Shown piece by piece: positions 24,982 through 40,806 of a stretch of 40,991 nt of DNA. The position numbers and the translations under genes were made by a program. The first letter of the stretch is position 1; each line of letters starts with the position of its first letter. The notes below the pieces were generated by a model, which was given only the letters and a program-made list of their open reading frames with translations, did no database searches and had not been told where the DNA came from. The stretch is from Planctomycetota bacterium (lineage in GTDB: Bacteria; Planctomycetota; B129-G9; JAJDCN01): the NCBI GenBank assembly GCA_029260815.1, contig JAJDCN010000232.1:1-40991 (forward strand), given 5' to 3'.

Positions 24982-25030
24982 CGAATCCCCCCTGATTTTT
25001 TATCTTCCGGCTCGCTCTCCTATTGATTTC

Positions 25031-25342: not shown

Positions 25343-25354
25343 CGAGACTTCCTT

Positions 25355-26245: not shown

Positions 26246-27636
26246 TGGGTTTGAACGAACCTCCGATCTCGAGACAAATAGCTGACGGCCACATGTCCAA
26301 TATCTCCCGCCCCCATGGTGATCAGCACTTCGCCGGTGTCCAGGTGCTCCTCCAGGTGCGCGAGGATCTGGTCCAAGCTGGGCAGATAGACGGCGTGGCC
26401 GCCCCGCGCCCGGATTTGGTGCACCAAGTCCTCCGAGGAGATGTTGTTTTTCTCTTCCAGGCTGTCCCGTACGAAATAGATGTCCGGGATGAGCGTCACA
26501 TCCGCGTCCACAAGCGATTGTGCGAAATCCTTGAGTAAAAACCGTGTTCGACTGTGCTGGTGTGGCTGGAACACGCACCAGACTCGGCGGCCGGGGTACA
26601 GATAGCGGATCGCCTCCAGCGTCGTCGCGATCGCTGTCGGGTGGTGGGCGTAGTCATCGATAATAATCACGTTGTCGCGGATGCCGACTCTTTCCAGTCG
26701 CCGGTGGACGCCGGGAAACTGCTCCAAGGAGTCGCGTGTATACTCTCGCGGAATTCCCAGTGCGTCCGCCGCTGCAATGACCGCCAGGCTGTTGAGCAGA
26801 CAATGCCGCCCGGGCACCGGGAAGCTGAAGCCCCCTTCTTCCCGGCCCTTGCGAACCAAGGTGAATTCCAACCCACGCTCGTTGCGCCGAATGTTCTTGG
26901 CGTGGTAATCCATTCCCGGGCTCAGGCCGAACGTGACCACCTGGGATCGAGCCGACCCGATCGCCGTGAGTACATTGGGATCTTCCCCGTTAGCAACGAT
27001 CGTTCCTTCCGAGGGGACCTGGGAGGCGAATTGGGAGAAGGCCTGGAGGATCTCGTCCAAACCGTCGTAGTAGTCCAGGTGATCTTCTTCGATGTTGTTC
27101 AGAATCGCAACCCGCGGGTGCAGGTTGAGAAACGAGCGGCGATACTCGCAGGCCTCCGCGATGAACAGGTCGCCCTTGCCCACCCGGGAAGAGCCGCCGA
27201 TGGCGCGTACCTCACCACCGATGACAAAGCTGGGGTCCAGCCCCGCATTGACTGCCGCCACCGCCAGCATGGCGGACGTCGAAGTCTTGCCGTGGGTGCC
27301 GGCCACGGCCACCCCGGTGGTCTTGTTCATCAAGGCCCCAAGGGCTTGAGCGTATTTTCGGATCCGAAGATTGCGGCGCTTAGCGGCATAGAGTTCAGGG
27401 TTGTCCGATGAAATCGCTTCGGTTACCAGAACCAGATCGGTTTCCGGTGGGATGTTGCCTTCGCGCTGGCCGACGTGAATCGCGGCGCCCAATTTGCGCA
27501 GGCCCTCGAGAAGTTGCGAATCGCGGGCGTCGGAGCCAGAGACGTGGATACCTTGGTCGAGCAGGTTCTTTGCGATCCCGCTCATACCGATTCCACCGAT
27601 CCCGACGAAGTGAACGTGCTCTATCCCCTCAAACAC
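26242..27636 (-). CDS. murC: UDP-N-acetylmuramate--L-alanine ligase
   Basis: HFVGIGGIGMSGIA and VAVAGTHGKTSTSAM (P-loop) are present, with DDYAHHP near the C-terminus. The start is GTG. Confidence 0.92.
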   Translation of the reverse strand: MFEGIEHVHFVGIGGIGMSGIAKNLLDQGIHVSGSDARDSQLLEGLRKLGAAIHVGQREGNIPPETDLVLVTEAISSDNPELYAAKRRNLRIRKYAQALGALMNKTTGVAVAGTHGKTSTSAMLAVAAVNAGLDPSFVIGGEVRAIGGSSRVGKGDLFIAEACEYRRSFLNLHPRVAILNNIEEDHLDYYDGLDEILQAFSQFASQVPSEGTIVANGEDPNVLTAIGSARSQVVTFGLSPGMDYHAKNIRRNERGLEFTLVRKGREEGGFSFPVPGRHCLLNSLAVIAAADALGIPREYTRDSLEQFPGVHRRLERVGIRDNVIIIDDYAHHPTAIATTLEAIRYLYPGRRVWCVFQPHQHSRTRFLLKDFAQSLVDADVTLIPDIYFVRDSLEEKNNISSEDLVHQIRARGGHAVYLPSLDQILAHLEEHLDTGEVLITMGAGDIGHVAVSYLSRDRRFVQTQ

Positions 27637-27671
27637 CGGCCTCCCCCTTTTTTGAAAGGTGTTTTCTCCAA

Positions 27672-27699
27672 ATTATACGGATGCAAAACAAATGTTCAA
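27672..27699 (-). promoter_or_regulatory. Internal dcw promoter: TTGAAC - 16 nt - TATAAT (minus strand)
   Basis: The reverse complement of 27672-27699 reads TTGAACatttgttttgcatccgTATAAT. It lies in the 96-nt murG-murC gap. Confidence 0.45.
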
Positions 27700-27732
27700 G
27701 GAAGAAGCGCATGTGTAGCCCTTTGTTAGGGG

Positions 27733-28884
27733 TTATTCTTGCGAATTGTTGGGCGAATCGACAATTAAGCGGGCAATAGCGGTTCGCGCATCGGGGTGAC
27801 CGATTCGGTCCAAGCTATGTGTGATCGACTGGGCAACCTCCGGATTCTTTACAATCTCTTGCAGGGCCTCGGCCAGGACGCGGGCGGAGTCGCTCCCTTC
27901 TTCCACCAACATCGCAGCCCCGCACTGTTGCATATGTTTTGCGTTTTTCAATTGGTCGCCTTCGACCGAATGGGGCAGTGGAATCAAAATCGACGGCACA
28001 TTACGAGCGGTCATCTCCGCAATGGTGATCGCTCCGGCTCGGCTGACCACCACGTCCGCCGCAGCCAGCGCCAGGTCGATCTTTTCGATAAACGGCATCA
28101 CCCGCGCCTGGAGCGTCAGGGACCGGTATTGGGCCACGACAGAGTTAAAATCCGCCTCCCCTGTCTGGTGGATGATGTTCATTGCCAGGCCGTTGCTGAA
28201 AATATTCGGCATTGCTTCCGTTACGATCCGGTTGACACCGGAGGAGCCTTGGGAGCCCCCCAAGATCAACAGCGTCTTGTGATGGGGGTCCAGGTTGAAA
28301 TGGGAATAAGCATCAGTTCGACTGGCCGCCTCGATTTCACGACGTACCGGGGTGCCCAGTACCTGCACGGGTCTTGGGCGCAGAGCCGTCGCGGTGTTCG
28401 TGTGGGAGCAGACCACCGTGTGTGCGAAGCGGGCCAGCCATCGTGTGGCCCGGCCCGGGGCCAGGTTCGGCTCCAGCAGCACAATGCGTATCCCCATCAG
28501 CCGTGCCACCAGCACCGTGGGCACTGAGGCATAGGCGCCCGTGCCCACGACCACTTCAGGACGAAACTGCCGAAGAATCCCGAAGGCGTCCGCCAGTGCC
28601 CGGACAAACGCGACCGTGAACTGTGGCCAGCCCCCAAGCTTGGAGGGAAGCTTCGGGGCGTCCAGAGCCACCTGATAGAACGGATACGCCTGGAGGATGG
28701 AACGATCCAGGCTCTTGCCGGAGGTGACAAACAGGATTTCGGAGTCGGGACGTTGCGCGGCGATTTCCCCGGCCACCGCTACGGCAGGAAGAATATGCCC
28801 ACCCGAGCCGCCGCCGGCGAACAAGACGCGCTGCACCTTTGGGACGGGCTTGAAAAGGCTCTTACTCTCAGCCTTTAATTCCAC
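27733..28884 (-). CDS. murG: Lipid II synthase: UDP-GlcNAc--undecaprenyl-PP-MurNAc-pentapeptide GlcNAc transferase
   Basis: VLFAGGGSGGHILPAVAVA (G-loop) and LLILGGSQGS are present, along with VVSRAGAITIAEM. Confidence 0.9.
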   Translation of the reverse strand: MELKAESKSLFKPVPKVQRVLFAGGGSGGHILPAVAVAGEIAAQRPDSEILFVTSGKSLDRSILQAYPFYQVALDAPKLPSKLGGWPQFTVAFVRALADAFGILRQFRPEVVVGTGAYASVPTVLVARLMGIRIVLLEPNLAPGRATRWLARFAHTVVCSHTNTATALRPRPVQVLGTPVRREIEAASRTDAYSHFNLDPHHKTLLILGGSQGSSGVNRIVTEAMPNIFSNGLAMNIIHQTGEADFNSVVAQYRSLTLQARVMPFIEKIDLALAAADVVVSRAGAITIAEMTARNVPSILIPLPHSVEGDQLKNAKHMQQCGAAMLVEEGSDSARVLAEALQEIVKNPEVAQSITHSLDRIGHPDARTAIARLIVDSPNNSQE

Positions 28885-29810
28885 CGGACTCTCGATTTGA
28901 GCAACTGAGCCTTCAGCGCAGGAGCGTGGCTGTCAAAGTCACTCGCGGAATAGCCTAGGGGCGTCGGTGAAGTGGTCGAAGCCACCGGGTACCAAATCCC
29001 GCTAGTGTCTTTGGACAATTCGACCGAGGTCACGTTTGCGTTTGTCCAATGGACGACCAGCATGCGCGTGCCGGACGTGGAGAGCATTTTCCACAGGCTG
29101 CCGCTGGCTTGGATTCCCATGTCGGCAAAGGCCGTCTTGGCTACTTCCAGCCCATCGGTTCGCCACGTCTGCTGTCCCGACGCCAGCGAACGGGAAATTG
29201 TCTGCAAATCGTTCGCGGTGGGGGTGGCATAGTAGCTTTTGGTGATACTCCCGAGTCGGGTGGTCGCCACGACGCTCGATCCTGTCCAGGTAGAGGCAGG
29301 CGTCTGCGGTATGGTACTGGCCACGGTCACGGTGGTGCCGGACGTCAGGCTGGGCTCGGAGGTGCCCGTTGGAACAGATCGGCCCATCCACTCCGGAGGC
29401 AGTTTCAACACCTGTCCCGGCATCAACTTGGTTGGTTCGATTCGGTTGAGCTGCTGCAAGGCCGGCCACGTGGAGTTCCGGCCGGTATACTTCCTGGCAA
29501 TCGCCTGGTAGGTGTCGCCCGACTTGACCGTGTAGGTTGTTGCAACCACCGGTGTTGGGAGAATCTCAGGAGCCGGATCCTGGCCTCCGACCGGCGCGGT
29601 CACATCCGGTGGCAGTGGCGGGACTAACGGCATTGAGGGTTGAGCGGCCTGACGAATCCGCTGACGTTGCTCCGGTTGTTGACGCGGCGCATTTTGTTGG
29701 GCGGTTGATCCGCCTCGATTCGTTTGTGCTTCGGTCGTGTTTTCCTCGCTGCAGCCGCCGGAAAACATCACCCCGGCGACAGCCAGGGTCGCTACGAACT
29801 TCTTCATCAT
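28875..29810 (-). CDS. LysM-domain lipoprotein with an uncharacterised C-terminal domain of about 170 aa
   Basis: GGAGGGA precedes ATGATG. The lipobox is ATLAVAGVMFSGGC, followed by a Pro/Gln-rich linker. The LysM domain is YTVKSGDTYQAIARKYTGRNSTWPALQQLNRIEPTKLMPGQVLKLP. The 3' end overlaps the murG start by 10 nt. Confidence 0.7.
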   Translation of the reverse strand: MMKKFVATLAVAGVMFSGGCSEENTTEAQTNRGGSTAQQNAPRQQPEQRQRIRQAAQPSMPLVPPLPPDVTAPVGGQDPAPEILPTPVVATTYTVKSGDTYQAIARKYTGRNSTWPALQQLNRIEPTKLMPGQVLKLPPEWMGRSVPTGTSEPSLTSGTTVTVASTIPQTPASTWTGSSVVATTRLGSITKSYYATPTANDLQTISRSLASGQQTWRTDGLEVAKTAFADMGIQASGSLWKMLSTSGTRMLVVHWTNANVTSVELSKDTSGIWYPVASTTSPTPLGYSASDFDSHAPALKAQLLKSRVRWN

Positions 29811-29842
29811 GTTCCCTCCAGAAATGATTTGGATGTTTGATT

Positions 29843-30997
29843 TCATCCGATCGTTTGTGTTGTCGGTCCGTTTTTTTCGAGCGCGCGATTGGCGATGTTA
29901 ATCAAGATGCCGACCGCGCAGCATTGAAACAGGAGCGCGGAACCGCCTTTTGAAATGAACGGCAGGCTGATTCCCTTGGTGGGAACCAAGTGCGTAACTA
30001 CGGCGATGTTGGCTGCCGCTTGTAGAGCAAGCATCACGGTTATCCCGTAGGCCAGCACGGAGGCAAACGGATCGTCCCGCGTCAACTTGGCAATTTGCAA
30101 ACCCGCCAGCGTAAAAGTTGCAAATGTTACAACAACGAGTAGGGTTCCCGCAAAGCCGGTCTCCTCGCCGAGAATGGCGAAGACAAAGTCAGTGTGTTCC
30201 TCTGGGAGATACCACAGTTTTTGCATGCTGCGGCCCAGGCCTTTTCCGAAGACCTCTCCGGAGCCCAGGGCGATGATCGACTGATTGATCTGGTAGCCAC
30301 TACCTGTCGGGTCAGCCACCTCTCCATATTGGACCGCATGTAGATACACGCCCAATCGGCTGGAGATGTGCGTCCAGTTCTGCGTAGCAACACCAATGGC
30401 GATAGGTATGGCAAGCGCCACCCCAACCAAACCTGCAAAGGGGGCGAAATGATTGTATCGAGCCCCCGCGGCCACGAGAACGAGGGCGCTGGTAAACAGC
30501 AGAAACAGCGGTGTTCCCGCGTCTCGCTCGGCGACAATCAACAGGGCCAACGCACCGAGTACCAGCGTGATCGGCAAAAATCCACGCTTGAAGTCGCGCA
30601 CGATTCCAGGCTTGCGCGTGGCGAAGGCGGCGATGAAAAGAACCGCGGCGAACTTCGCCATCTCCGATGGCTGGAAACTGATCGAGCCGAATCGGAACCA
30701 GCGTTGGGCTCCGTTGACCTTGGAACCGACGCCCGGGACCAGTACCGCGCCCAGTAACACAACCGTGGCGATAAGGATCGGGACTGCGGCCTTCTTCAAG
30801 CTTCGATAGTCGATGAGCGTGAACGCCAACAGGCCGGCGACCGACAGCGTCAAATACAACAAGTGCTTTCGTGGGATATAGGTCTGATCGTCGTGGAAGT
30901 GGTGAGAGCGCACCGAACTGGCCGAATACACCATTACCAGGCCGATTGCCATCAGCAGTGCGGCGGTGATCAAGATTGTGTTGCGTGCGTTGGTCAT
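29843..30997 (-). CDS. ftsW: SEDS-family peptidoglycan glycosyltransferase FtsW
   Basis: The protein is multi-TM, with MVYSASSV, FQPSEMAKF, EEHTDFVFAILGEETGF and LPFISKGGSALL signatures. It sits in the canonical position before murG. Confidence 0.88.
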   Translation of the reverse strand: MTNARNTILITAALLMAIGLVMVYSASSVRSHHFHDDQTYIPRKHLLYLTLSVAGLLAFTLIDYRSLKKAAVPILIATVVLLGAVLVPGVGSKVNGAQRWFRFGSISFQPSEMAKFAAVLFIAAFATRKPGIVRDFKRGFLPITLVLGALALLIVAERDAGTPLFLLFTSALVLVAAGARYNHFAPFAGLVGVALAIPIAIGVATQNWTHISSRLGVYLHAVQYGEVADPTGSGYQINQSIIALGSGEVFGKGLGRSMQKLWYLPEEHTDFVFAILGEETGFAGTLLVVVTFATFTLAGLQIAKLTRDDPFASVLAYGITVMLALQAAANIAVVTHLVPTKGISLPFISKGGSALLFQCCAVGILINIANRALEKNGPTTQTIG

Positions 30998-31006
30998 GGG
31001 CCGTTC

Positions 31007-31663
31007 CTAGGGCGTAATGGTCACCGGTGTGCCGACCGGGATATGATCGAAAACCTCCAGGATCTCTGCATCGGATATCGAAATACAGCCCAACGTAGAG
31101 GTTCGGTTTCCCTTGGCTCCGTGGATAAAAATTTCGCCACCAAGCTTTGTGTTCCAGGGCGGCTGGACGCGCCGGTTGATTGCCCACCGGATATGTTCGA
31201 ATTCCTCTTGCGTAATCATCGCCTCGCGCAGCCCGCGCTCAGCGTCTTCTACGTTCGGGTAGCTGATGCCCAGGGACCGGGTGTATTGGCTTTGCGGGTT
31301 TTTCACGCAGATGTAGAACGTTCCCTCCGGTGTTGCCTTGTCCCCTTCTTGTCTTTTGTCCGCGGTGTTTCCCCCTGCAATCGCTTCAATGCGCTTGACC
31401 AGCTCCTTGTCCCGGTAAATCTTGAGAATCCCCGCGCTCTTGCTGAAGGTCATGGACAACTTGCCCTGATACCAGGTACCGTCATCGATCACGACCACCT
31501 CGTCGCCTTGGGTTTGGGTCTTGTCGTCCGGCTCTATGGTGGGGACGATCTGCGTCTGGTGAGCCGAGCTATCGTTCATTGCAAGGAAGGCGAGCAGCCC
31601 GCCCGCGCTCAGCAGAAGGATCGTTGCTGCAACCAAGACCGCTCCATTCTGATTCACCCCCAT
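31007..31663 (-). CDS. Membrane-anchored L,D-transpeptidase (YkuD domain)
   Basis: The N-terminal TM is AVLVAATILLLSAGGLLAFLA. The catalytic motif is IFIHGAKGNRTSTLGCISIS (H...GC). The ATG lies 1 nt after the mraY stop, and the stop lies 9 nt before the ftsW start. Confidence 0.75.
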   Translation of the reverse strand: MGVNQNGAVLVAATILLLSAGGLLAFLAMNDSSAHQTQIVPTIEPDDKTQTQGDEVVVIDDGTWYQGKLSMTFSKSAGILKIYRDKELVKRIEAIAGGNTADKRQEGDKATPEGTFYICVKNPQSQYTRSLGISYPNVEDAERGLREAMITQEEFEHIRWAINRRVQPPWNTKLGGEIFIHGAKGNRTSTLGCISISDAEILEVFDHIPVGTPVTITP

Positions 31664-31664
31664 C

Positions 31665-32780
31665 TTACCGAATCCTTAAGGAAGCGATGCTGAACAAGGC
31701 CAGGATCGCCCCGATAATCCAAAACCGTATCACCACTTGCGTTTCCGACCATCCCTTGAACTGGAAATGATGATGAATCGGAGCGCATAGAAACAACCGC
31801 TTGTGTCGTGTCTTGTAGGAACCGACCTGAAGAATGACCGACAGAGCCTCTACCACGAAGATTCCGCCGGCGATCATCAAGATGATCTCGTGTTTGGTCG
31901 CAACCGCAATAAAGCCGATGGCCCCCCCGAGCGGCAGGGCACCGGTATCGCCCATGAAGATCTTTGCCGGGTGGCAATTAAACCACAGAAATCCCAGGCA
32001 TCCACCCAGGATCGACGCGGAGAAGATCGCCAGCTCGTCTGCGCCCGCGACCGGAGGCAGATGCAGATAGTTCGCCAGTCCCTTCGGTCCCACGCTGCCG
32101 ACCGCCAGGCAGAAGCCCACGAACGTCAGAGCTACCATCGCTGAGAGTCCTGAGGCCAGTCCATCGAGTCCGTCGGTCAAGTTGACGGCGTTCGACGTGG
32201 CCCCGATCACCAGCGCAACAAATGGGATATAAAGGAGTCCCAGATCTACGGAGCCCAACTTGAACGGGAAGTAAAGCGTATACGCATCGGGCACCGCTCG
32301 ATTGTGCGAGTAGAGCAGGTAGCCCAGAAGAAGCCCGACCAGAACCTGCGGCAAGACCTTTTCCAGAGATGTCAGGCCCGGCGCGTTCTTCGACGACAGT
32401 TTGATCCAGTCGTCGTGGAAGCCCACCAGCGTCAGCAGAAGGGTAGAGAGGATCGCCATAATCACGTAATACTCGTCGATCCGGGCCCACAAAATGGTGG
32501 AGAGCAGGACCGAACCGATGATCATTATGCCGCCCATGGTCGGCGTTTGCGCCTTGTGATCGTGCAAGTGGGCCAACCGTTCCGAATCCGTCTTTCCGGT
32601 GTGCTCCGAGAAGCGGTTGCTTTGCAGCAAGCGTATCAAGCGAGGACCGATGTACAGGCAAATGAAGAAGGAGGTGATCGCCGCAAACACAGTTCGGAAC
32701 TCTACGTAGGTGAAGACGTGGAACGGATGAACTCCGAACCACTCCACATTGCTCCACGGAAATAATAACTTTGGTAGCAT
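31665..32780 (-). CDS. mraY: Phospho-N-acetylmuramoyl-pentapeptide transferase
   Basis: KAQTPTMGG, NAVNLTDGLDGLA, MGDTGALPLGG and APIHHHF motifs are present. Confidence 0.93.
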   Translation of the reverse strand: MLPKLLFPWSNVEWFGVHPFHVFTYVEFRTVFAAITSFFICLYIGPRLIRLLQSNRFSEHTGKTDSERLAHLHDHKAQTPTMGGIMIIGSVLLSTILWARIDEYYVIMAILSTLLLTLVGFHDDWIKLSSKNAPGLTSLEKVLPQVLVGLLLGYLLYSHNRAVPDAYTLYFPFKLGSVDLGLLYIPFVALVIGATSNAVNLTDGLDGLASGLSAMVALTFVGFCLAVGSVGPKGLANYLHLPPVAGADELAIFSASILGGCLGFLWFNCHPAKIFMGDTGALPLGGAIGFIAVATKHEIILMIAGGIFVVEALSVILQVGSYKTRHKRLFLCAPIHHHFQFKGWSETQVVIRFWIIGAILALFSIASLRIR

Positions 32781-32792
32781 CTTCCTGGTGCC

Positions 32793-34205
32793 TTACTCGT
32801 TTGTCATCTTGACCGATGTGTCGATTCGACTCATATCGGACGGTACACCAGCCCGCATGGCGCTGACGATCGATTCCATATGCATTCCCCGGGATCCTTT
32901 AATCAGGACGATTGCGCCGTCGGGGATAAGAGATACGTGCTTTGTGCAATCCGTGGTGTTGACGAAACAGCGGATGTTCTCCGGTTTCATCCCCTGGCGA
33001 ACCGCCTCCACCGCGATTTCGTTAGCTTGTAGACCGATGGTCCAGAGAACCTCGATCCCGGCCTGCGCGACCTGCCGCCCGACGCCCGAATGATAGAGCT
33101 CCGCCGCCCCGCCCATTTCCAGCATGTCTCCGAGGATCGCCATCTTGATCTGTCCTCCGGTCAGAGAGGCCACGCTCTTGAGAGCGGCTTCCATGCTGCC
33201 AGGGTTGGCGTTGTAGGAGTCATCGATTACCAGGGTCTCCCCCAATTCAAAGACTTCCATTCGGTGGCTCGGCGGTGTGAAGTTCAGCAGCCGCTTCGAG
33301 CAGTATTCCAGCCCGATGCCCAGCCCGGAGCAGGCCGCCACGGCTGCGAGGGTGTTGTAAACATTGTGCCGGCCCAGCCCGGGTATCTCGAACGGGACGT
33401 CGTTGATTCGGAACGTCAGCTCGTAGCCGGCTTGTCGAATGGCACTCGCTTGGAAGTGCGCCGTTGTTTCCACTGCGAAGGTTGCCGTGTGGGCCCGGGT
33501 GACGTGCAGCATGACATGCGCGTAGGGGCAGTCCAGGTTGATCACTGCCAGGCCGTTTTCACGGACCGCCGCAATTAATTTGCTCTTTTCTCGGGCGACG
33601 CTGCTTTCGCTGCCGAACCCGCCCAAGTGGGCCGAGCTGACACCCGTAACCACGCCGATATCCGGTCGAGCGATATCGGCCAGCCGTTCCATCTCGCCCA
33701 CTTGACTACAGCCAATTTCCATCACCGCCGCCCGCGTTCGGGGCGTAATGGTGAGCAAGGATTTTGGTAGGCCGATCTCGTTGTTGAAGTTGCCCTTGGA
33801 CGCTACGGTTGGCAGAGAATCTTTCAGGATGTGGTAGATCATTTCCTTGGTGGTTGTCTTGCCATTAGAACCGGTGACCGCGATGAGCGGCGGGTTGACA
33901 GCGTCTCGGACGAAGCGGGCCAGTTGGCCCAATGCCGCGCGGGTGTCGCGCACGGTCAAACAAATACAACCTTCCGGGACTTTGCTCATTGGCCGGTTGG
34001 TCAACACGGCTGGACACCCGGCCTCCGCGGCCTCGGCGATGAAGTCGTGCCCGTCGAAGTTCTCTCCACGAATCGCGATGAACAGTTCGCCCGGCTGAAG
34101 GGTTCGCGTGTCTGTATTGATCGATGTAAACGCGATTTCCGGACAATTGCCTTCCAAGGTCGCCCCGGTAATGCATACGATTTCTTCCAGTGATAGATCG
34201 ATCAT
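32793..34205 (-). CDS. murF: UDP-MurNAc-tripeptide--D-alanyl-D-alanine ligase
   Basis: IAVTGSNGKTTTKEM (P-loop), DDSYNANPGSM and LGDMLEMG are present. The gene overlaps the murE stop as ATGA. Confidence 0.92.
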   Translation of the reverse strand: MIDLSLEEIVCITGATLEGNCPEIAFTSINTDTRTLQPGELFIAIRGENFDGHDFIAEAAEAGCPAVLTNRPMSKVPEGCICLTVRDTRAALGQLARFVRDAVNPPLIAVTGSNGKTTTKEMIYHILKDSLPTVASKGNFNNEIGLPKSLLTITPRTRAAVMEIGCSQVGEMERLADIARPDIGVVTGVSSAHLGGFGSESSVAREKSKLIAAVRENGLAVINLDCPYAHVMLHVTRAHTATFAVETTAHFQASAIRQAGYELTFRINDVPFEIPGLGRHNVYNTLAAVAACSGLGIGLEYCSKRLLNFTPPSHRMEVFELGETLVIDDSYNANPGSMEAALKSVASLTGGQIKMAILGDMLEMGGAAELYHSGVGRQVAQAGIEVLWTIGLQANEIAVEAVRQGMKPENIRCFVNTTDCTKHVSLIPDGAIVLIKGSRGMHMESIVSAMRAGVPSDMSRIDTSVKMTNE

Positions 34206-35701
34206 GACATATCCTTTGGAATGGCGTTGATGGCAACGGAAGCCTTTGAGTGCTGCAACTCCTGTAGCGCCTGCGCGGCTACGATCCGGTCATCGAAGGG
34301 GATTACCCGATCAGAGAGAACCTGGCGTGCTTCGTGTCCTTTGCCGGCGATCAAAACGATATCGTCCGGTTCGGCCGCTGCGATCGCCTTGCGAATGGCT
34401 GTGTGGCGGTCCGGCTCGGTTTCGTAATGTGTCGCTTCGCCGATGCCGGTTAACACTTCATGAATAATTGCCTCGGGGTCTTCGCCCCGCGGATTGTCGG
34501 AGGTGACCCAGAAGCGATCCGACCAGCGCTCCACCGCGGCTCCCATCTTCGGACGCTTGGTCCGGTCCCGGTCGCCACCGCAGCCGAATACCGTGAGGAT
34601 CCGGTTGCGTTTGAGTTCCGAGAGGTTGGCCAGCACCGTGTTCAAGGCGTCGTCGGTATGCGCGTAGTCGACCAGGACGTGAAATGGCTGACCGCAATCG
34701 ACGCGTTCCAACCGCCCTGAAATCGTTTCCACCTCTTCCAGCCCTCTCCGGATGGCGTCGGTGTGAATGCCCATGGAAAAGGCGCAGGCCGCTGCGGCGA
34801 GAGCATTGTAGATGTTATGGACGCCGATCAGTGGCCAGGCCACAGAGAATGAACCCGCCGGCGTGCGGATCTCAAAAGTCGCCCCCTCCAGTCCGGCAGC
34901 GTCCACGTGCCCGCGAACCATCCCCTCGTGCAGCCCGTAGGTGATGACTCGGGCGCGCGTTTTTTCAATGATCTGCCGGCCGCCACGGTCATCTGCGTTG
35001 ATTGCGGCCACGGCGTTTGCCCCCAGTTGTTGAAACAAGAGTCCTTTGGCGGCCAGGTATTCTTCCAGGGTTCCGTGGTAGTCCAGATGTTCGTGGCTCA
35101 GGTTGGTGTAGATTGCCGCCTCGAAGGTGACGTCGCGGACGCGTCGTTGGGTCAGAGCATGAGAGGAAACTTCCATGACTGCATACTCTACGCCCGCCGC
35201 CCGCATCTGCTCCAAGTGATGTTGCAACTCCACCGGTCCGGGCGTCGTGTTGTCGATCGGGAGGAAGCGCCCGGCATATTCGCAGCCGACCGTCCCGATC
35301 AGGCCGGTGGCGTCTCCGGCCGCGGTCAGGATCGCGCGCAACAGATAGCTGGTGGTCGTTTTTCCGTTGGTCCCGGTCACGCCGACCACGTGCATCTTGG
35401 TGGAAGGACAGCCGTGGATGAATCCGGCCAGACGCGACAGCGCCGCGCGGGCGTCGGGAACAAGGATCATGGGAATGCTCTTGGACGTGACGGTGTGGCG
35501 CTGGGCTACGATCGCCGCGGCTCCGGCCTTGAGAGCGTCGGGCACGAATCCGGTCCCGTCCACGTCGATCCCCGGGATCGCGACAAAGACCGATCCATTG
35601 CGTACCCGGCGGGAATCGCACTCCACCGAGACAATCTCTCTTTCCCGAAAGTTTGCCGCTTTATAAGACTCCAGCGATGATAACAGCTTGCTCAGCTTCA
35701 T
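34202..35701 (-). CDS. murE: UDP-MurNAc-L-Ala-D-Glu--2,6-diaminopimelate ligase
   Basis: VGVTGTNGKTTTSYL and VDYAHTDDAL are present. The DNPR motif (TSDNPRGEDP) indicates meso-DAP specificity. Confidence 0.92.
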   Translation of the reverse strand: MKLSKLLSSLESYKAANFREREIVSVECDSRRVRNGSVFVAIPGIDVDGTGFVPDALKAGAAAIVAQRHTVTSKSIPMILVPDARAALSRLAGFIHGCPSTKMHVVGVTGTNGKTTTSYLLRAILTAAGDATGLIGTVGCEYAGRFLPIDNTTPGPVELQHHLEQMRAAGVEYAVMEVSSHALTQRRVRDVTFEAAIYTNLSHEHLDYHGTLEEYLAAKGLLFQQLGANAVAAINADDRGGRQIIEKTRARVITYGLHEGMVRGHVDAAGLEGATFEIRTPAGSFSVAWPLIGVHNIYNALAAAACAFSMGIHTDAIRRGLEEVETISGRLERVDCGQPFHVLVDYAHTDDALNTVLANLSELKRNRILTVFGCGGDRDRTKRPKMGAAVERWSDRFWVTSDNPRGEDPEAIIHEVLTGIGEATHYETEPDRHTAIRKAIAAAEPDDIVLIAGKGHEARQVLSDRVIPFDDRIVAAQALQELQHSKASVAINAIPKDMS

Positions 35702-35719: not shown

Positions 35720-37432
35720 TCATTTGTCCGGTTTTACCTGCAAGTGGATCAACGATTTCTCGATGATCTCGGAGACCGCAGGTGCGGCCACTGTGCCGCC
35801 GTAGTGACTTCCATGCGGCGTATCCACGGCCACCAAAACGCACAGCTCAGGCCGGGGAACAGGAGCGATGCCGACAAAATAGCCTACGTAATCGGTTTCC
35901 GAATAGCCTCTGCCGTTGGGCAGGGCCTTTTGCGCCGTTCCCGTCTTTCCGCCCACCGTGAAGTGTTCGGTGGCTGCCTTTTTTCCCGTTCCTTCTTCCA
36001 CCACAGCCTGCAGAATCGGCCGGATTTGCTGCACCGCCTCATAGGACAGCACCCGCCGTAGTTCCTGCGGCTCGTTTTGTTGCAAAAGATTTCCATCTGT
36101 GTCTTCGATCCGGGCAATGAGATAGGGCCGGAACAGGATCCCGTAGTTCCCCAGCGAGCAATAGGCGCTGGCCAACTGAAGCGGCGTAACGGTCATCTCC
36201 TGCCCGAAGGCGACCGACGCCTGGGAGTAGTTGTTCCAGCGCTCCATCGGAGTGATCCGCCCGCGCGCTTCGCCCCGCAGGCCCAGATCGGTGGGGCGTC
36301 CGAAGCCCAGGGAGACGACAAAGTCCCGCAACTGCTGATGGGTCAGCATCATCCCGATCCGCGCCGCGCCGACGTTGCTCGACTTGACAACAACGTCGCG
36401 TACGCTCAGCATCGCGCTACGCACATGATCGCGGATTGTTCGTCCGCCAACGCTTCCGGTGACCGAGATCATCGTATCCGGCCGGACCAATCCAAGATTG
36501 AGCGCGGCCGCGACCGTAAAGGGCTTAAACGTGGAGCCTGGATCGTAGGCGTCTGTGATCGCTCGGTTGCGCCGCTGGTGGGGTGTGGAGGCCGAAAACC
36601 GGTTCGGATCGTAGCCCGGCCGAGAGGCGATCGCCAGGATCTCACCGGTATAAGGCCGCATCACGATCGCGATGGCCCCCTCCGCCTTCCACTTCACGAA
36701 GGCCTCGTCCAGGGCCGCCTCCGTGATCGCCTGGATCTCCGGGTCGATGGTCAAGATCACATTGTGGCCATCGATCCCCGGCATTCCTTCCTCGCCAAGC
36801 GATGGGATGGGGCGACGCCGTGCATCGACGGCACTGGTCCGCTGACCGGGCGTGGTTCGGAGGAAGTTGTTGAACGCCAACTCGAGGCCCTCCAGCCCCC
36901 TGTCGTCACGATCCTTTTCGTCTTGGGTCACGAAGCCGAGGACTTGCGCCAGCATCTTACCCTGCGGGTAGCGACGTTTGTACTCGTACCGAAAATGGAG
37001 ACCGGGGACGCTCAGGCTGTGGACCGCTACTGCGTCCGACTCGCTCAAGAATCGGGCGAGCCAGACGAAGCGGTAGGGCGTTCCATTGGGTCGACGACGC
37101 ATCAGCTTGCGCTCGATGCGCGTCGGGTCGAGGCCGATCGCGGCGGACAACATGGCCGCGACACCGCTGGGATTGGCGATCCGCTCCGGGTCCGCGTACA
37201 GCGACGGGACCCGCTCGGAGGTGGCCAGCAGCGTACCGTCGCTGGCCCGGATGTCGCCGCGCTTGGGGACGTCGGGCATCTTCATCCGTTGCTGCCGGTC
37301 GGCGGCCCGGGCCGATTCCGGGCCGGCCACCACCTGGATGAAGAACAGCTTTACCGCCAGGCCCGCAAATACTAACACGATCACGATCTGCGTGACGGTG
37401 GCAGTTCTGGAGATCGAGGCTTCCCCATCCAT
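35720..37432 (-). CDS. ftsI: Class B penicillin-binding protein / peptidoglycan D,D-transpeptidase FtsI
   Basis: There is an N-terminal TM. The active-site triad of motifs is STFKP, SSN (VKSSNVG) and KTGTA. Confidence 0.9.
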   Translation of the reverse strand: MDGEASISRTATVTQIVIVLVFAGLAVKLFFIQVVAGPESARAADRQQRMKMPDVPKRGDIRASDGTLLATSERVPSLYADPERIANPSGVAAMLSAAIGLDPTRIERKLMRRRPNGTPYRFVWLARFLSESDAVAVHSLSVPGLHFRYEYKRRYPQGKMLAQVLGFVTQDEKDRDDRGLEGLELAFNNFLRTTPGQRTSAVDARRRPIPSLGEEGMPGIDGHNVILTIDPEIQAITEAALDEAFVKWKAEGAIAIVMRPYTGEILAIASRPGYDPNRFSASTPHQRRNRAITDAYDPGSTFKPFTVAAALNLGLVRPDTMISVTGSVGGRTIRDHVRSAMLSVRDVVVKSSNVGAARIGMMLTHQQLRDFVVSLGFGRPTDLGLRGEARGRITPMERWNNYSQASVAFGQEMTVTPLQLASAYCSLGNYGILFRPYLIARIEDTDGNLLQQNEPQELRRVLSYEAVQQIRPILQAVVEEGTGKKAATEHFTVGGKTGTAQKALPNGRGYSETDYVGYFVGIAPVPRPELCVLVAVDTPHGSHYGGTVAAPAVSEIIEKSLIHLQVKPDK

Positions 37433-37478: not shown

Positions 37479-38240
37479 TTAGCCGATGTCCTTGGGCAGA
37501 ATGAAGATCTCCACTCGACGGTTTTTCGCTTTTCCTGCGTCATCGCCGTTGTCGGCAACCGGCTGGAATTCACCGTAGCCAGCGGCGTAAACGATCTGCT
37601 GGTCGACACCATGCTTCGCAAGGAAGCGCGCGACGGCAGTGGATCGACCGACAGAAAGGCCGAGATTGTCGATCCAGACCTTTGCGGTCTTCCTGAGCGG
37701 AACGTTGTCAGTATGTCCATCGACACGGACTTTGGCAGCGTCGGTTTTCAGGACATTGGCCAACTGCGTCAGGGTCTGCTGGACCGGTTTTTTTAGAGCG
37801 TTGGAACCGCTGAAAAACAAAAGGTCCCCGGAAACATTGAGCCTGATCATTCCGTCGACCATCGTACCGGTGAGCCCGGTTTTGTCTTCAATCTCCTTTA
37901 GCAGCGCAGCAATCCGTTGTTCCTGTTGTGTCTTACTGCTCTCCAAGGATTTGATTTTGTCATGGGCGGCTCTTAGGCGGTTGCCCTGTCCGTTTAACGC
38001 GGCGAGTTGATTCTGGAGGTCGGCAATGCGCTGCTGCAGCGCAGCGATCTGTTTGGCGCCGGAGCCGTCCTGGTTCCGCAGGGCCTCCAGCTCTTGGAGC
38101 CTGGCGTTCTTTTCGGTATTAAGAATGTTGTAACGGTCCTGCAAATCGCTGTGCCTTGCACCGGAGACGCACCCTTGCGTCAGTACCACAGTGAAGGCAA
38201 CGACAGCGATAGCGACCACAACTCTTGAAACTCGATTCAT
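37479..38240 (-). CDS. Coiled-coil lipoprotein with a C-terminal OmpA/MotB-type peptidoglycan-binding domain
   Basis: GAGGAGAGGGG precedes the ATG at 38240. The lipobox is FTVVLTQGC. The coiled coil is LQELEALRNQ...IAALQQRIADLQNQLAAL. The OmpA_C-like part is FFSGSNALK...VDGHTDNVP...NLGLSVGRSTAVARFL...GYGEFQPVADN...NRRVEIFI. Confidence 0.8.
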   Translation of the reverse strand: MNRVSRVVVAIAVVAFTVVLTQGCVSGARHSDLQDRYNILNTEKNARLQELEALRNQDGSGAKQIAALQQRIADLQNQLAALNGQGNRLRAAHDKIKSLESSKTQQEQRIAALLKEIEDKTGLTGTMVDGMIRLNVSGDLLFFSGSNALKKPVQQTLTQLANVLKTDAAKVRVDGHTDNVPLRKTAKVWIDNLGLSVGRSTAVARFLAKHGVDQQIVYAAGYGEFQPVADNGDDAGKAKNRRVEIFILPKDIG

Positions 38241-38305
38241 GTCCCCTCTCCTCATTACGAGTGACGATTAAATGTGAAAAAACAATTCGTTTAAGTCGTT
38301 TCCAT

Positions 38306-38770
38306 CTAGTTGGACGGAATGGCAATTATGGCACCAGCACGCAGCTCGCCATTGGAGCCGATCTTGCCGGGGTTGGCATTCTTGATCGCCTGCCACTTCT
38401 TTCCGGTGCCATAGAAGCGTCGGGCCAGCGCCCATAGCGTATCGCCGCGCTGTACGGTGTACTGACGGCCTTGCGCGTTCGGCTGGGATCCGGCAACCAC
38501 GGTGGCCGACGCGGTGGTCAGCTCCGGCGGCATGGACATCGGGCTGGGAGTCAGGACCACCGGCCGCGCCTGAAGAGCGGCCAGACGGGCTTGCTCCCGC
38601 TGTTCTTTGATCTTTTGAATCTGTGCGGCCACTTGCTGGTGTTCCTGTTCCAGCAGTTCGGTCCGATGGTTCAGCTTGTCATCCTTTTCCTGGGAAACAC
38701 AACCGGCGACGCCGATGCCACCGATCAACAGGGCCGCCGCAACGGCCAACGGTTTTGCGTACGCTTTCAT
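38306..38770 (-). CDS. Coiled-coil lipoprotein with a C-terminal LysM domain
   Basis: GAGGTG lies before the ATG at 38770. The lipobox is LIGGIGVAGC. The helical segment is LLEQEHQQVAAQIQKIKEQREQARLAAL. The LysM domain is YTVQRGDTLWALARRFYGTGKKWQAIKNANPGKIGSNGELRAGAIIAIP. Confidence 0.75.
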   Translation of the reverse strand: MKAYAKPLAVAAALLIGGIGVAGCVSQEKDDKLNHRTELLEQEHQQVAAQIQKIKEQREQARLAALQARPVVLTPSPMSMPPELTTASATVVAGSQPNAQGRQYTVQRGDTLWALARRFYGTGKKWQAIKNANPGKIGSNGELRAGAIIAIPSN

Positions 38771-38827
38771 AAACACCTCACAAAAATGGGATAAATCGAT
38801 TCTCAATTTCTTTACAAACGTCACGAT

Positions 38828-39538
38828 CTAGTGAACCTCCGGCAGAAGGATTACCTGCCCGGTGGTTAACTCGCCGTGAGCTCCGATCTTGTCCGGATTT
38901 GCTTCGCGGATCTGGCGCCACTTGGAACCATCTCCGTAGTGATCCTTGGCCAACTCCCAACAACTGTCGCCGAACTTTACTTTGTGTTGTTTGCCCGTTC
39001 GAGCCACCAGCGTTGTGCCTCCGGCGATGACGGTTGGGATCGTTTCGGTCGGCGGTTCAACCACGGCCGGTGTGATCGCCCCCGCATCGGGGATCGCGAG
39101 CTTGGTTCGCAGCTTCAAGTGCCCTTGAGGGCTGACCAGGTTGGCGTTGGCGTCACGGATCTTCGTCCACATCCGACCGTCTCCATAGTACTTAACGGCC
39201 AACTCCCAGCAGGTGTCGCCATTCACGACCGCGTGGAACGTTTGAGCAGCTGCAACGGCAGGAAGCGCGAGGATCGGTGGGGTAATCCCTCCGCTGGCCG
39301 TCTCCATCGGGACGGTTGGGGCTTCGGGCACGTTTACTTCCTCGACAGGTGGACGATGGGTGGGTGGGCGCTCTTGTCCTGGCGTCGTTTGCGTTGGGGC
39401 AGGCTGCTCCGACTCTGCGGCCTGAACGCTGGTGGATGCTTGGGTCCCGTTCGGGTCCGTCAGGCGGTCGAACAGCACGTTTACCAGGACCATTAACAGC
39501 AGTAGGGCAAAGATCCCGATGTACGCCGTTTTTGTCAT
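38828..39538 (-). CDS. Membrane-anchored protein with two LysM domains
   Basis: AAGGAGG lies 5 nt before the ATG at 39538 (MTKTAYIG). The TM is IGIFALLLLMVLVNVLF, followed by a Pro/Thr-rich linker. The LysM repeats are FHAVVNGDTCWELAVKYYGDGRMWTKIRDAN... and HKVKFGDSCWELAKDHYGDGSKWRQIREANPDKIGAHGELTTGQVILLP. Confidence 0.75.
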   Translation of the reverse strand: MTKTAYIGIFALLLLMVLVNVLFDRLTDPNGTQASTSVQAAESEQPAPTQTTPGQERPPTHRPPVEEVNVPEAPTVPMETASGGITPPILALPAVAAAQTFHAVVNGDTCWELAVKYYGDGRMWTKIRDANANLVSPQGHLKLRTKLAIPDAGAITPAVVEPPTETIPTVIAGGTTLVARTGKQHKVKFGDSCWELAKDHYGDGSKWRQIREANPDKIGAHGELTTGQVILLPEVH

Positions 39539-39569: not shown

Positions 39570-39899
39570 CTACTCTTGTTCGTGTGGGTTGTGTGGGTTT
39601 CCCCCCGGAACAATATTCTCCGAAGGCTGTGGGTTCTGAGTTTGCACAAAGCCGAGCGCGTCCTGCGGTGGGACGAGCTTGATGGGGTGTTCGGCCATTC
39701 GCTGCCGCAGGGCCGCCGGGCTCGTCAAGACGGCCCGTTCCAATTCCAATTTTCGATTCTTCTCTTGCAACGCATCCCGCTCGGCCCGCACGCGGGCCAA
39801 CTCGTAGCCCAAGGTCACCTGCCGTGTGCGAAAGTGGACGACCACCAGGGCGGCGACCATTGCGACGCATACGGCGAGAATAACTTGGCGTACCTTCAT
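39570..39899 (-). CDS. ftsL: FtsL-like bitopic cell-division protein
   Basis: The position is immediately after rsmH, with the ATG at 39899 lying 1 nt after the rsmH stop. There is a single TM, VILAVCVAMVAALVVV, followed by the coiled coil LARVRAERDALQEKNRKLELERAVL. Sequence conservation in this family is weak, so the call rests on architecture plus synteny. Confidence 0.6.
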   Translation of the reverse strand: MKVRQVILAVCVAMVAALVVVHFRTRQVTLGYELARVRAERDALQEKNRKLELERAVLTSPAALRQRMAEHPIKLVPPQDALGFVQTQNPQPSENIVPGGNPHNPHEQE

Positions 39900-39900
39900 C

Positions 39901-40797
39901 CTAATTCCTCTCGATGCCGCGCAGTTTGGCACTGCGGGCTCTGGGGTTGTCTTGCACCGCCTCGGTATCCGCGGTCACCGGCTTCTTCGTAAGGACACGG
40001 AACCTGCCGGCCTGGTCGGCGGCGCGGAACCGGTGCTTAACGATCCGGTCTTCCAGAGAGTGGAAGCTGATGACTGCCATGCGGCCACCGGGGGCGAGAA
40101 GATCCATGGCTCGATCCAGAGCCCCTCGCAAGATCTCGAGTTCGTCGTTGACTCCAATGCGCAGCGCTTGGAAGGTCCGCGTGGCCGGATGGATTCGGAA
40201 GCGCTTTTTCGGATAGGCTCTCTTGATCAGGTTGGCCAACTGCTGGGTTGTTTCGATGCGGCCGGTCTCGCGGGCGCGGACAAGGGTCCTTGCGATTCGA
40301 CGGGACAGCCGATCCTCGCCGTATTGGAAGATCAGGTCAGCCAATTCCCTTTCGGGCAGTTCGTTGACCAACTGCTCGGCGGTGGGGCCGTCGGAGCCGG
40401 TGTCCATCCGCATGTCCAGTGGGCCGTCGTGGGTAAAGCCGAATCCGCGGGCGGGATCCCCCAGTTGTGGCGAAGAGACGCCCAGATCCAGGAGAATTCC
40501 GTCGACGGATTCGACTTGCCGGTCGTGCAGGATTTTGTCGATGTGGGTGAAATTGTCGTGAACCGGGACGAATGCATCGCCGAATGGCTTGAGTCGGTCG
40601 GTGGCCGCTTCCAGCGCGGCGCGATCTTGATCAATCCCTATCAACGTCCCCTTGCTCCCGATGGCCGACAACAGCAGTCGTGCGTGACCTCCGTATCCGA
40701 CGGTCGCGTCGATGAAGGTCTGTCCCGGTTTTGGCTGAAGAATTTCGACTGTTTGTTTGGCGAGGACGGGTCGATGGGTCGGATGCCCCCCCTCCAT
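39901..40797 (-). CDS. rsmH: 16S rRNA (cytosine1402-N4)-methyltransferase
   Basis: HRPVLAKQTVEIL, FIDATVGYGGHA, DGILLDLGVSSPQLGDPARGF, RIAVISFHSLEDRIVK-like (MAVISFHSLEDRIVKH) and NPRARSAKLR are present. Confidence 0.93.
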   Translation of the reverse strand: MEGGHPTHRPVLAKQTVEILQPKPGQTFIDATVGYGGHARLLLSAIGSKGTLIGIDQDRAALEAATDRLKPFGDAFVPVHDNFTHIDKILHDRQVESVDGILLDLGVSSPQLGDPARGFGFTHDGPLDMRMDTGSDGPTAEQLVNELPERELADLIFQYGEDRLSRRIARTLVRARETGRIETTQQLANLIKRAYPKKRFRIHPATRTFQALRIGVNDELEILRGALDRAMDLLAPGGRMAVISFHSLEDRIVKHRFRAADQAGRFRVLTKKPVTADTEAVQDNPRARSAKLRGIERN

Positions 40798-40806
40798 GTT
40801 AATTCG

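Follow-up and report, generated by a model that had tools for sequence, protein, structure and literature searches.

Three small genes, here called A, B and C, lie between ftsL and ftsI on the minus strand of a dcw cluster, and each of them joins a membrane anchor or a lipoprotein-type signal to a domain that binds peptidoglycan (PG). The placement is rare and the components are familiar. We tentatively read the three products as envelope-to-wall tethers made alongside the septal synthase, and give this reading not quite an even chance. In the window, which is the whole stretch of 40,991 nucleotides that was analysed, the gene order on the minus strand is rsmH, an ftsL-like gene, A, B, C and ftsI, and the genes discussed below are as follows.

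39901..40797, minus strand: rsmH (mraW), the first recognisable dcw gene of the window (Pfam Methyltransf_5, E=2.8e-106)
39570..39899, minus strand: ftsL-like gene, 109 aa, with an N-terminal TM helix and a helical region
38828..39538, minus strand: gene A, 236 aa, TM helix, linker and two LysM domains
38306..38770, minus strand: gene B, 154 aa, lipoprotein with a helix and a LysM domain
37479..38240, minus strand: gene C, 253 aa, lipoprotein-type signal, helix and OmpA-like domain
35720..37432, minus strand: ftsI (class B PBP), 46 nt 3' of gene C (Pfam Transpeptidase, E=3.3e-69; PBP_dimer, E=2.2e-19)
24010..35701, minus strand: remaining dcw genes, murE, murF, mraY, (ykuD), ftsW, (D), murG, murC, murB, orf103 and ddl, assigned with Pfam
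31007..31663, minus strand: YkuD-type L,D-transpeptidase gene with an N-terminal TM/signal segment (Pfam YkuD, E=2.8e-19)
28875..29846, minus strand: gene D, a fourth LysM lipoprotein of up to 323 aa between ftsW and murG (Pfam LysM, E=1.2e-12, 48 bits)

The gene upstream of A encodes a small bitopic protein, occupies the position between rsmH and ftsI and reaches 23.8 bits against Pfam FtsL (cut-off 22.9); its assignment as FtsL is marginal because the match to TIGR02209 (E=5e-9, 35.9 bits) stays under the cut-off of 42.45. With Pfam, neither ftsQ, ftsA and ftsZ nor murD was found in the cluster, which ends with murB-ddl, in agreement with the earlier note as to ftsQAZ. The usual place of murD between mraY and ftsW is taken by the ykuD gene, and the Pfam search of the window gave no Mur ligase there. 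The description of a three-gene module was right about the three genes but too narrow about the set, as the same cluster also holds the YkuD-type L,D-transpeptidase and the fourth LysM lipoprotein. These wall-related extras (A, B, C, YkuD and D) are five genes at three positions, and they are all the non-canonical genes of the cluster that have a recognisable domain (5/5). Gene D is the sole occupant of the ftsW-murG slot among 40 loci; its product is 27% identical to that of B over 136-140 aa, signal and linker included, and has a C-terminal domain of about 170 aa whose family is unassigned by Pfam (no match at E<=10) and for which a sequence match in the PDB was also not found.

The spacers between the genes are short, namely 31 nt for ftsL-A, 57 nt for A-B, 65 nt for B-C and 46 nt for C-ftsI, and a Shine-Dalgarno sequence precedes A (GAAGGAGG), B (GAGGTG), C (GAGGAG) and ftsI (AGGGGAG), so that the coordinates, gaps and separate Shine-Dalgarno sequences given earlier for the three same-strand genes are confirmed. 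The starts of B and C were also chosen by an independent gene caller run on a 2.2-kb Logan contig of identical sequence; the sole other copy of the locus, in Logan SRR15505518 (L012), shows no difference over 2201 nt (100% identity). Searches of the four spacers for terminators, promoters and structured RNA found none, with fold z-scores near 0, and neither Rfam nor tRNA scans of the window gave a match. Judged from this layout, A, B and C are probably co-transcribed with ftsL and ftsI. Two points weigh against the tether reading here: with 33-38% GC vs about 60%, the A-B and B-C spacers are rich in AT and could be seats of internal promoters, and the lipobox of C is non-canonical. The GC3 values of A and B (0.69-0.72) are in line with those of the adjacent dcw genes, and no direct or inverted repeats flank the insertion; a recent horizontal or mobile insertion is therefore unsupported.

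All LysM and OmpA matches described below are above the Pfam gathering thresholds (20.9 bits for LysM, PF01476; 27.2 bits for OmpA, PF00691), so the domain assignments of the earlier note passed the Pfam check that it had proposed. None of A, B and C reaches the cut-off of any curated family. Gene A is composed of the following parts.

39470-39538, minus strand: signal-anchor TM helix, residues 1-23, from hydropathy
39236-39469, minus strand: linker of 77 aa, rich in Pro, Thr and Ala
39086-39235, minus strand: LysM1, from Pfam
38840-38986, minus strand: LysM2, from Pfam

The product of A matches Pfam LysM PF01476 in two stretches (E=4.3e-15, 55.8 bits), and Pfam and hydropathy agree on a TM-anchored protein with two LysM domains, as first described; the cytoplasmic tail, of about 5 residues, is essentially missing. 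The best match outside the locus is of 58 bits only, and neither of the best homologues examined (P0242, P0244) is in a dcw context. In its layout A resembles FtsN, which also crosses the inner membrane once and continues into a long, Pro-rich, disordered periplasmic linker and a C-terminal PG-binding domain, and A lies near ftsI. It differs from FtsN in the very short cytoplasmic tail and in having LysM instead of SPOR; no Pfam SPOR match was found in A, B or C, and no essential FtsN helix motif is recognisable in the linker of A. The sequences of FtsN-like proteins vary greatly (PMC7327166). A thus fits the FtsN-like layout of bitopic anchor, linker and PG-binding domain as an architectural resemblance only.

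A single-pass TM helix followed by extracytoplasmic LysM is also the build of YneA/ChiZ-type division inhibitors, which block septation under stress, and the YneA suppressor model (NF010723) finds both A (23.2 bits) and B (23.7 bits). These scores are well under the cut-off of 60, A carries two LysM domains as well as a long linker, and there would be little sense in expressing an inhibitor constitutively along with ftsL and ftsI. Genes of the YneA type are SOS-regulated and lie outside the dcw cluster. We consider it very improbable that A is such an inhibitor.

Gene B is composed of the following parts.

38699-38770, minus strand: lipoprotein signal with lipobox VAGC, read from the sequence
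38573-38704, minus strand: helix of about 44 aa, residues 23-66, predicted with AF2
38315-38461, minus strand: LysM (Pfam, E=2.7e-10, 40.5 bits)

A disordered linker separates the helix from the LysM domain. The lipoprotein nature and the LysM domain of B were thus recognised correctly from the start, and what had been called a coiled coil is one predicted helix of 44 residues, with a pLDDT of 84-94 in a single-sequence AF2 model. No full-length orthologue of B was found with HMMER among 1.84 billion representatives, the matches being mostly proteins with multiple LysM repeats. In sequence, the LysM domains of A and B resemble those of YgaU and phage gpX; an assignment as YgaU/Kbp (NF008399) was nevertheless rejected, because A (64.9 bits) and B (39.6 bits) remain under the cut-off of at least 134, the matches cover only model positions 89-147 of 149, and Pfam finds no BON domain. 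The suggested paralogy of the three LysM copies is well supported for the second unit of A and B, which are 41% identical over 83 aa, a similarity that includes about 30 aa ahead of the LysM domain. It is less clear for the remainder: LysM1 of A has diverged further (37-41% identity), and LysM domains from outside the locus are similarly close to LysM2 when this domain is taken alone (about 49% identity).

As in Lpp and OprI, the mature parts of the lipoproteins B and C start with a long alpha-helix that extends to the wall. The match of B to the Lpp/OprI alanine-zipper model (NF040598) is weak (residues 12-69; 21.9 bits, cut-off 43), and B ends with ...AIPSN and C with ...KDIG, so that both are without a C-terminal Lys and B is not of the Lpp/OprI type. 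Since B ends in ...IPSN, covalent attachment through Lys is not expected for it, and B and C would bind through the LysM or the OmpA-like domain, not through a covalent link as Lpp/OprI do.

Division-site targeting mediated by LysM is described for DipM, NlpD and EnvC (PMC5533458), and B gives weak matches to the DipM (20.7 vs 740 bits) and ActS (15.4 vs 375 bits) models. These matches would fit regulators or scaffolds that recruit or activate FtsI/FtsW, YkuD or an amidase in the manner of LpoA/B, NlpD/EnvC/DipM or NlpI; ftsI lies right beside the three genes, and ftsW and an L,D-transpeptidase gene belong to the same cluster. There is also the precedent of E. coli, in which outer-membrane lipoproteins are established as reaching through the wall and controlling synthases (cited in PMC12132463 and PMC7327166). 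The matches are, however, confined to the LysM region and far under the cut-offs, as are all matches to the NCBIfam DipM models (17-21 bits vs 740-900), and neither LytM/M23 nor TPR nor any other domain for interaction or activation was found in A, B or C; besides the PG-binding domains the three proteins consist of helix or disordered linker. No M23 match was found with Pfam in A-D, at E<=0.1 or at E<=0.001, and none of the four is a LytM factor (NlpD/EnvC/DipM/ActS). A regulatory role of this kind seems to us improbable.

Gene C is composed of the following parts.

38169-38240, minus strand: signal ending with ...LTQGC, a non-canonical lipobox
37878-38162, minus strand: helix of 95 residues, predicted at high confidence with AF2 (mean pLDDT of the model, 87)
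37494-37868, minus strand: OmpA-like PG-binding domain (Pfam OmpA PF00691, E=6e-16, 59 bits)

The PG-contact motifs of OmpA-like domains (GHTD, LS..R and NRRVE) are intact in C. Across 42 homologues, the motif G-H-T-D...N..L..R...N-R-R is invariant and Cys24, the lipid anchor, is at least 90% conserved. Of the earlier description of C as a lipoprotein with a long coiled coil and an OmpA/MotB-type domain, the domain and a helix of 95 residues were recovered, whereas the lipobox departs from the canonical form and coiled-coil oligomerisation is hypothetical. C belongs to a wide family of lipoproteins with a long helix and an OmpA-like domain, annotated as 'OmpA family protein' or 'MotB', with which it shares the anchor Cys and the invariant residues and aligns end to end at 27-37% identity. 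This family gives 3277 matches at E<=1e-5 in Bacteroidota, Myxococcota, Nitrospirota and others; our search for a characterised member found none.

The high-confidence structural model of C and a Foldseek comparison confirmed the OmpA-like fold; the best matches were PA0833, MotS, PomB, TssL and YiaD, with E-values of 2.6e-13 to about 2e-11 for the first four. The domain is nearer to those of MotB, PomB, TssL, YiaD and YfiB than to that of Pal. A MotB/PomB stator was rejected for C, as the lipoprotein-type signal is cleavable and no TM helix is retained, no motA is adjacent, and the scores (MotD 113.7 vs 283, MotB 83.9 vs 301) are under the cut-offs. Pal is an outer-membrane lipoprotein whose C-terminal OmpA-like domain binds PG non-covalently, and a late divisome component promoting outer-membrane constriction (PMC12132463; see also PMC7391070). 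Unlike Pal, C has the 95-residue helical stalk and no adjacent tol genes; no tolQRAB was found within the 41-kb window, and the match to the Pal model TIGR02802 is of 45.8 bits against a cut-off of 125 (125.35). The identities Pal, Lpp, MotB stator, LytM, SPOR and YneA were rejected because the scores stay under the respective cut-offs or the defining domains are absent.

Gene position and domain content make a septal tethering role of A, B and C plausible. The proteins would be non-catalytic PG binders facing the periplasm. A would be held in the inner membrane by its one helix, from which the linker of about 77 residues would let the two LysM domains reach glycan strands. B and C are predicted to be sorted to the outer membrane because Asp is absent at +2 (the Lol rule of E. 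coli), and they would carry their PG-binding domain, LysM in B and OmpA-like in C, at the tip of a rigid helical stalk, whose predicted length is about 6.5 nm in B and about 14 nm in C. If they are made along with FtsI and FtsW and located at the septum, the three would fasten both membranes non-covalently to the new septal wall, and the envelope layers might then invaginate together, a task that Pal, Lpp and the LysM or SPOR domains of NlpD, DipM and FtsN perform elsewhere. In Myxococcus, stronger tethers between outer membrane and PG suffice to couple the constriction of the two (PMC12132463).

The rarity of the arrangement was examined with 76 other loci having both rsmH and ftsI (77 including the window). 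That ftsL is normally adjoined by ftsI, as the earlier note stated, holds in this set, for the rsmH-to-ftsI gap has a median of 497 nt over the 77 loci, and the gap of the window (2468 nt) is the largest. A wall-binding gene occurs in the ftsL-ftsI region in 1/76 other loci, and in the six nearest FtsI relatives examined the insertion is absent and ftsI directly follows ftsL, which speaks against the tether reading. The single case (L034), which speaks for the tether reading, is a contig of a probable planctomycete, in which a gene for a TM helix, a disordered part and two LysM domains lies between rsmH and ftsL-ftsI. LysM genes occur ahead of ftsW in five of the 76 other loci, within the slot from murD/mraY to ftsW in 5/45, and anywhere inside the dcw cluster in 6/76; an OmpA-like gene was found in none of the 76. 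Four LysM/OmpA genes are present in the dcw cluster of about 17 kb in the window, as compared with four in total in 680 kb of dcw interior from 80 metagenomic loci, a density of PG-binder genes about 40-fold above that of these 80 other loci. No close relative was found among 5.8 billion protein clusters, the best FtsI match being at most 43% identical, and a contig search with the FtsI sequence gave one locus only, a distant one.

These counts bear also on the view that A, B and C are housekeeping envelope staples, acting over the whole cell as tethers or spacers like Lpp, OmpA, YiaD and Pal, and seated in the dcw cluster only for constitutive, growth-coupled expression. The very broad family of C and the YgaU- or gpX-like type of the LysM domains speak for this view, the count of 0/76 dcw loci with an OmpA-like gene means that such genes have no conserved dcw link, and the nearest homologues of C and of A occur in neighbourhoods unrelated to dcw (for C, neither P0002 nor P0006, the best full-length homologues examined, is in a dcw context), which also weighs against the tether reading. 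On the other hand, hitch-hiking is unlikely because five of the five inserted domain-bearing genes are wall-related and occupy three slots; moreover, LysM genes recur in the dcw clusters of other lineages, and a chlamydial LysM protein, NlpD, is septal (PMC4083446). We regard the whole-cell alternative as rather unlikely, and keep septal tethers as the favoured reading.

The NlpD of Waddlia chondrophila (Chlamydiae) is, by analogy, the closest precedent, and it comes from a PVC bacterium. Its gene lies in a cluster for wall and division proteins, and the protein, which has two LysM domains, binds sacculi via LysM and is septal in dependence on prior wall synthesis; it also has a region or origin of the LytM/M23 type and acts like an endopeptidase when assayed with an E. 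coli reporter (PMC4083446). The likeness lies in the gene for a LysM PG binder inside a wall/division cluster; A, B and C differ from it in having no M23 domain, in their ftsL-ftsI slot, and in being three genes, one of them OmpA-like. The earlier statement that no such system is described can be kept for the arrangement itself, on which we found no paper in the literature, but not for the general idea, which the Waddlia NlpD and the LysM genes of other dcw loci precede.

The dcw cluster is among the most conserved gene arrangements of bacteria, and its history has been summarised as one of loss and dispersal, with 'likely no gene gain' (PMC8871954); the cluster in the window has five wall-related gains at three positions. 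The recurrence of anchored LysM genes in the dcw clusters of several uncultured lineages suggests that these are under-described accessory division genes. If the proteins are septal, membrane invagination would be coupled to septal wall synthesis via generic wall-binding domains on stalks of defined length, and this would bear on envelope division in lineages without Lpp, without FtsN and possibly without FtsZ, and on the question whether tether density alone drives outer-membrane constriction (PMC12132463). A more far-reaching version, which we judge doubtful, is a late divisome for a bacterium lacking the classical accessories, possibly an FtsZ-less PVC-type organism: A would be a LysM-type FtsN analogue that senses septal glycan and feeds back on FtsWI, the places of Lpp and Pal would be taken by B and C as outer-membrane staples of defined length that drive outer-membrane constriction, and the remaining members of the wall-remodelling set would be the L,D-transpeptidase and the LysM protein encoded by D. 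The TM-2xLysM gene beside ftsL-ftsI in L034, the probable planctomycete, would be a counterpart of A. An RseB-like gene was also observed within the window, and its presence suggests a diderm envelope.

The earlier note described three genes, here A, B and C, inserted between an ftsL-like gene and ftsI and carrying LysM or OmpA-like domains, and this insertion was confirmed by the coordinates, by the spacers of exactly 31, 57, 65 and 46 nt around the three genes, by a Shine-Dalgarno motif upstream of each of them and by Pfam. The starts of B and C were identical in an independent gene call on an identical 2.2-kb Logan contig, another copy of the A-B-C region.

Features of the dcw cluster of the window, in 5' to 3' order
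40797-39901, minus strand: rsmH
39899-39570, minus strand: ftsL-like gene
39538-38828, minus strand: gene A
38770-38306, minus strand: gene B
38240-37479, minus strand: gene C
37432-35720, minus strand: ftsI, followed by murE, murF and mraY
31663-31007, minus strand: YkuD L,D-transpeptidase gene with an N-terminal membrane segment, between mraY and ftsW
29846-28875, minus strand: gene D, a LysM lipoprotein gene, between ftsW and murG
Minus strand, after gene D: murG, murC, murB
Minus strand, after murB and in this order: 103-aa ORF (25031-25342), ddl, 129-aa ORF (23624-24013), endonuclease V gene

Within this cluster no ftsQ, ftsA, ftsZ or murD was found. The slot between mraY and ftsW, which the YkuD gene occupies here, is the usual place of murD, and murD is also missing from it in five comparison loci (L004, a Brocadiaceae contig, and L036, L042, L053 and L076). 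Neither the 103-aa ORF between murB and ddl nor the 129-aa ORF, which has a hydrophobic N-terminus and follows ddl at the position where ftsQ normally comes, has a family match. A MraZ C-terminus was not recognisable in the 194 nt upstream of rsmH (40798-40991, minus strand), where a 55-aa ORF (40807-40974), adjoined by the contig end, is likewise without a family match.

The product of gene A (236 aa) starts with a 23-residue hydrophobic helix lacking a cleavage motif, followed by a Pro/Thr/Ala-rich linker of 77 residues and two LysM domains about 35 residues apart (Pfam LysM, E=4e-15, two stretches). Gene B encodes 154 aa with a canonical lipobox (VAGC), one predicted 44-residue helix, then about 34 disordered residues and a C-terminal LysM domain (Pfam, E=2.7e-10). 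In the 253-aa product of gene C, the signal peptide ends in LTQGC, whose Cys is shared by at least 90% of 42 homologues, and an AlphaFold2 model built on the alignment of these homologues was confident (mean pLDDT 87). Residues 27-121 of the predicted model form one unbroken helix, about 14 nm long at 1.5 Å per residue, and residues 125-249 form an OmpA-like domain that is nearest to PA0833, MotS, MotB, PomB, TssL, YiaD and YfiB, not to Pal (Foldseek and phmmer against PDB), with the peptidoglycan (PG)-contact motifs GHTD, N..LS..R and NRRVE intact. The helix-coding part also contains an imperfect 35-nt direct repeat (37884-38053, minus strand; 71% identity, 135 nt apart), and because of this repeat we note that internal duplication is suggested as the way the stalk grew.

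Because no NCBIfam equivalog reached its curated cut-off with A, B or C, and Pfam found no LytM, SPOR, BON or catalytic domain in them, the three are, as predicted from sequence, anchored, non-enzymatic wall binders. The identities Pal, Lpp/OprI, DipM, ActS, YneA, MotB and YgaU were all below these cut-offs; no named family was assigned, and the bare domains alone were recognised. That such proteins are scaffolds or regulators of wall enzymes is a smaller rival explanation, which we regard as improbable, and that gene A is a YneA-like division inhibitor is most improbable.

The earlier note had inferred from shared motifs that the three LysM copies are paralogous. This holds for the second LysM unit of A and for B, which share 41% identity over 83 residues with similarity reaching about 30 residues upstream of LysM, but is weaker for the first unit of A, which is more diverged than both. 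The LysM domain alone of the second unit has similar identity, about 49%, to unrelated phage-type LysM proteins. Because outside matches of gene A peak at only 58 bits in a search of 5.8 billion clusters, A and B are judged from their sequences to be true local paralogues. An alignment of B with D covers the signal peptide and the linker as well as LysM, at 27% identity over 136-140 aa; the C-terminal domain of D, about 170 residues and Ser/Thr-rich, has no sequence match in Pfam or PDB.

No close relative of the lineage was found in searchable databases, where FtsI has at most 43% identity to any other sequence and its top matches are scattered among Brocadiales, a Chlamydiae MAG, Omnitrophota, Desulfuromonadia and Acidobacteria. 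Gene C has a best match of 36% identity, and gene A a single full-length match of 26%. In six near FtsI relatives, ftsL is directly followed by ftsI. We surveyed 80 dcw loci of JGI metagenomes, retrieved by an FtsI profile and annotated with custom HMMs for LysM and OmpA-like domains, the dcw genes being identified by phmmer. The rsmH-to-ftsI distance, with a median of 497 nt in the 77 loci having both genes, is largest in the window (2468 nt), and other large gaps consist of a longer FtsL and a small conserved ORF. A wall-binding gene occupies this slot in just one further locus (L034; JGI Ga0137463_1000021, 7573-9887), in the order rsmH, LysM gene, 100-aa ftsL-like ORF and ftsI. The encoded protein, of at most 657 aa, combines a TM helix and a long disordered region with two LysM domains at the C-terminus, and is analogous to gene A in both position and architecture. 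This contig, where a DUF1501 gene adjoins, is probably planctomycete. Small anchored LysM genes lie between murD/mraY and ftsW in 5 of 45 other loci.

LysM genes before ftsW in other surveyed loci
L013, 14619-15050
L015, 13924-14466
L023, 17227-17697
L053, 6199-6945
L076, 14896-15633

Their products, from five uncultured lineages, carry a membrane or lipid anchor and one or two LysM domains but no LytM domain, and are possibly related to chlamydial NlpD, which is also embedded in a dcw cluster. No other surveyed locus has an OmpA-like gene inside the cluster, and gene D is the sole occupant of the ftsW-murG slot among 40 loci. The dcw interior of the 80 loci (680 kb) contains four LysM/OmpA genes, against four in about 17 kb of the window. 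The exact A-B-C arrangement is thus unique within the material surveyed; anchored LysM genes as such are found repeatedly within dcw clusters. In many soil-metagenome dcw loci (L044, L062, L067, L077, L082, L084, L085 and L088), rsmH and the gene of a long FtsL (about 150-175 aa) are separated by a conserved, unannotated small ORF, which encodes 50-99 aa and has the core motif MYTGT(L/M)I(E/K)(E/D)L...V(E/Q)RAE.

Our literature search found no description of genes for LysM or OmpA-like proteins in the ftsL-ftsI interval, nor of LysM genes in planctomycete division loci. The gain of five genes in this cluster is noteworthy because a comparative study (PMC8871954) concluded that dcw history was one of gene loss and delocalisation, with "likely no gene gain". 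Among published systems, the closest precedent is chlamydial NlpD: it binds the sacculus through two LysM domains, and its septal localisation depends on prior wall synthesis (PMC4083446). The septal PG-tethering role proposed in the earlier note is partly supported: it is plausible and fits precedents, but is less unprecedented than claimed, given NlpD and the LysM genes of other dcw clusters; A, B and C would belong among septal or dcw-associated wall-binding accessory proteins, an already known sort. In architecture gene A is similar to FtsN, LysM taking the place of SPOR, but the two have no sequence features in common, and the likenesses to Pal, Lpp, FtsN and NlpD are functional analogies only.

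On the coding strand of the A/B/C spacers, neither an intrinsic-terminator-like site nor a sigma-70-like promoter was found, and the spacers fold no better than shuffled sequence; co-transcription of the three genes with the cluster is likely. GC3 is 0.69 for A and 0.72 for B, in line with neighbouring dcw genes, and slightly lower for C (0.65), still inside the cluster's range; no flanking repeats surround the insertion. Because the A-B (38771-38827) and B-C (38241-38305) spacers are AT-rich (33% and 38% GC, against about 60% for the locus and 72% for the C-ftsI spacer), they may harbour internal promoters or regulatory sites, of which consensus scans found none. The main rival, that A, B and C are general envelope staples merely using the dcw promoter, seems unlikely to us. 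Tentatively, we prefer to see them as inner- and outer-membrane tethers to the septal wall, co-expressed with FtsL, FtsI and FtsW; the data show the domains, anchors, geometry, layout and rarity, and from these we infer transcription unit, sorting, localisation and phenotype. Gene A would link septal glycan strands with the inner membrane, and B and C, since both lack Asp at +2, would be outer-membrane tethers if sorting is of the E. coli type. Helical stalks of about 6.5 nm (B) and 14 nm (C) would set the spacing, and co-expression would match tether supply to septal synthesis. Pal and Lpp are such tethers of outer membrane to wall, and L,D-transpeptidases like YkuD are able to cross-link the peptides of the wall or to attach proteins of the envelope; the presence of the YkuD gene and gene D in the same cluster suggests that this locus is specialised in coupling envelope and wall. 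In Myxococcus, more tether suffices to synchronise outer-membrane and wall constriction (PMC12132463). The finding would be weightier if the lineage's genome proved to be without classical FtsN, Pal, Lpp or FtsZ.

Elsewhere in the window, an ECF sigma factor, a 596-aa protein without a family match and a MucB/RseB-like protein are encoded in succession (4608-8590, plus strand), a layout that resembles a sigma-E-type envelope-stress module and hints at a diderm envelope. A 658-aa protein (15609-17585, plus strand) matches the NCBIfam model "Hvo_1808 family surface protein", named after a haloarchaeon, with E=7.5e-38 and a score of 130.9 against a cut-off of 200.
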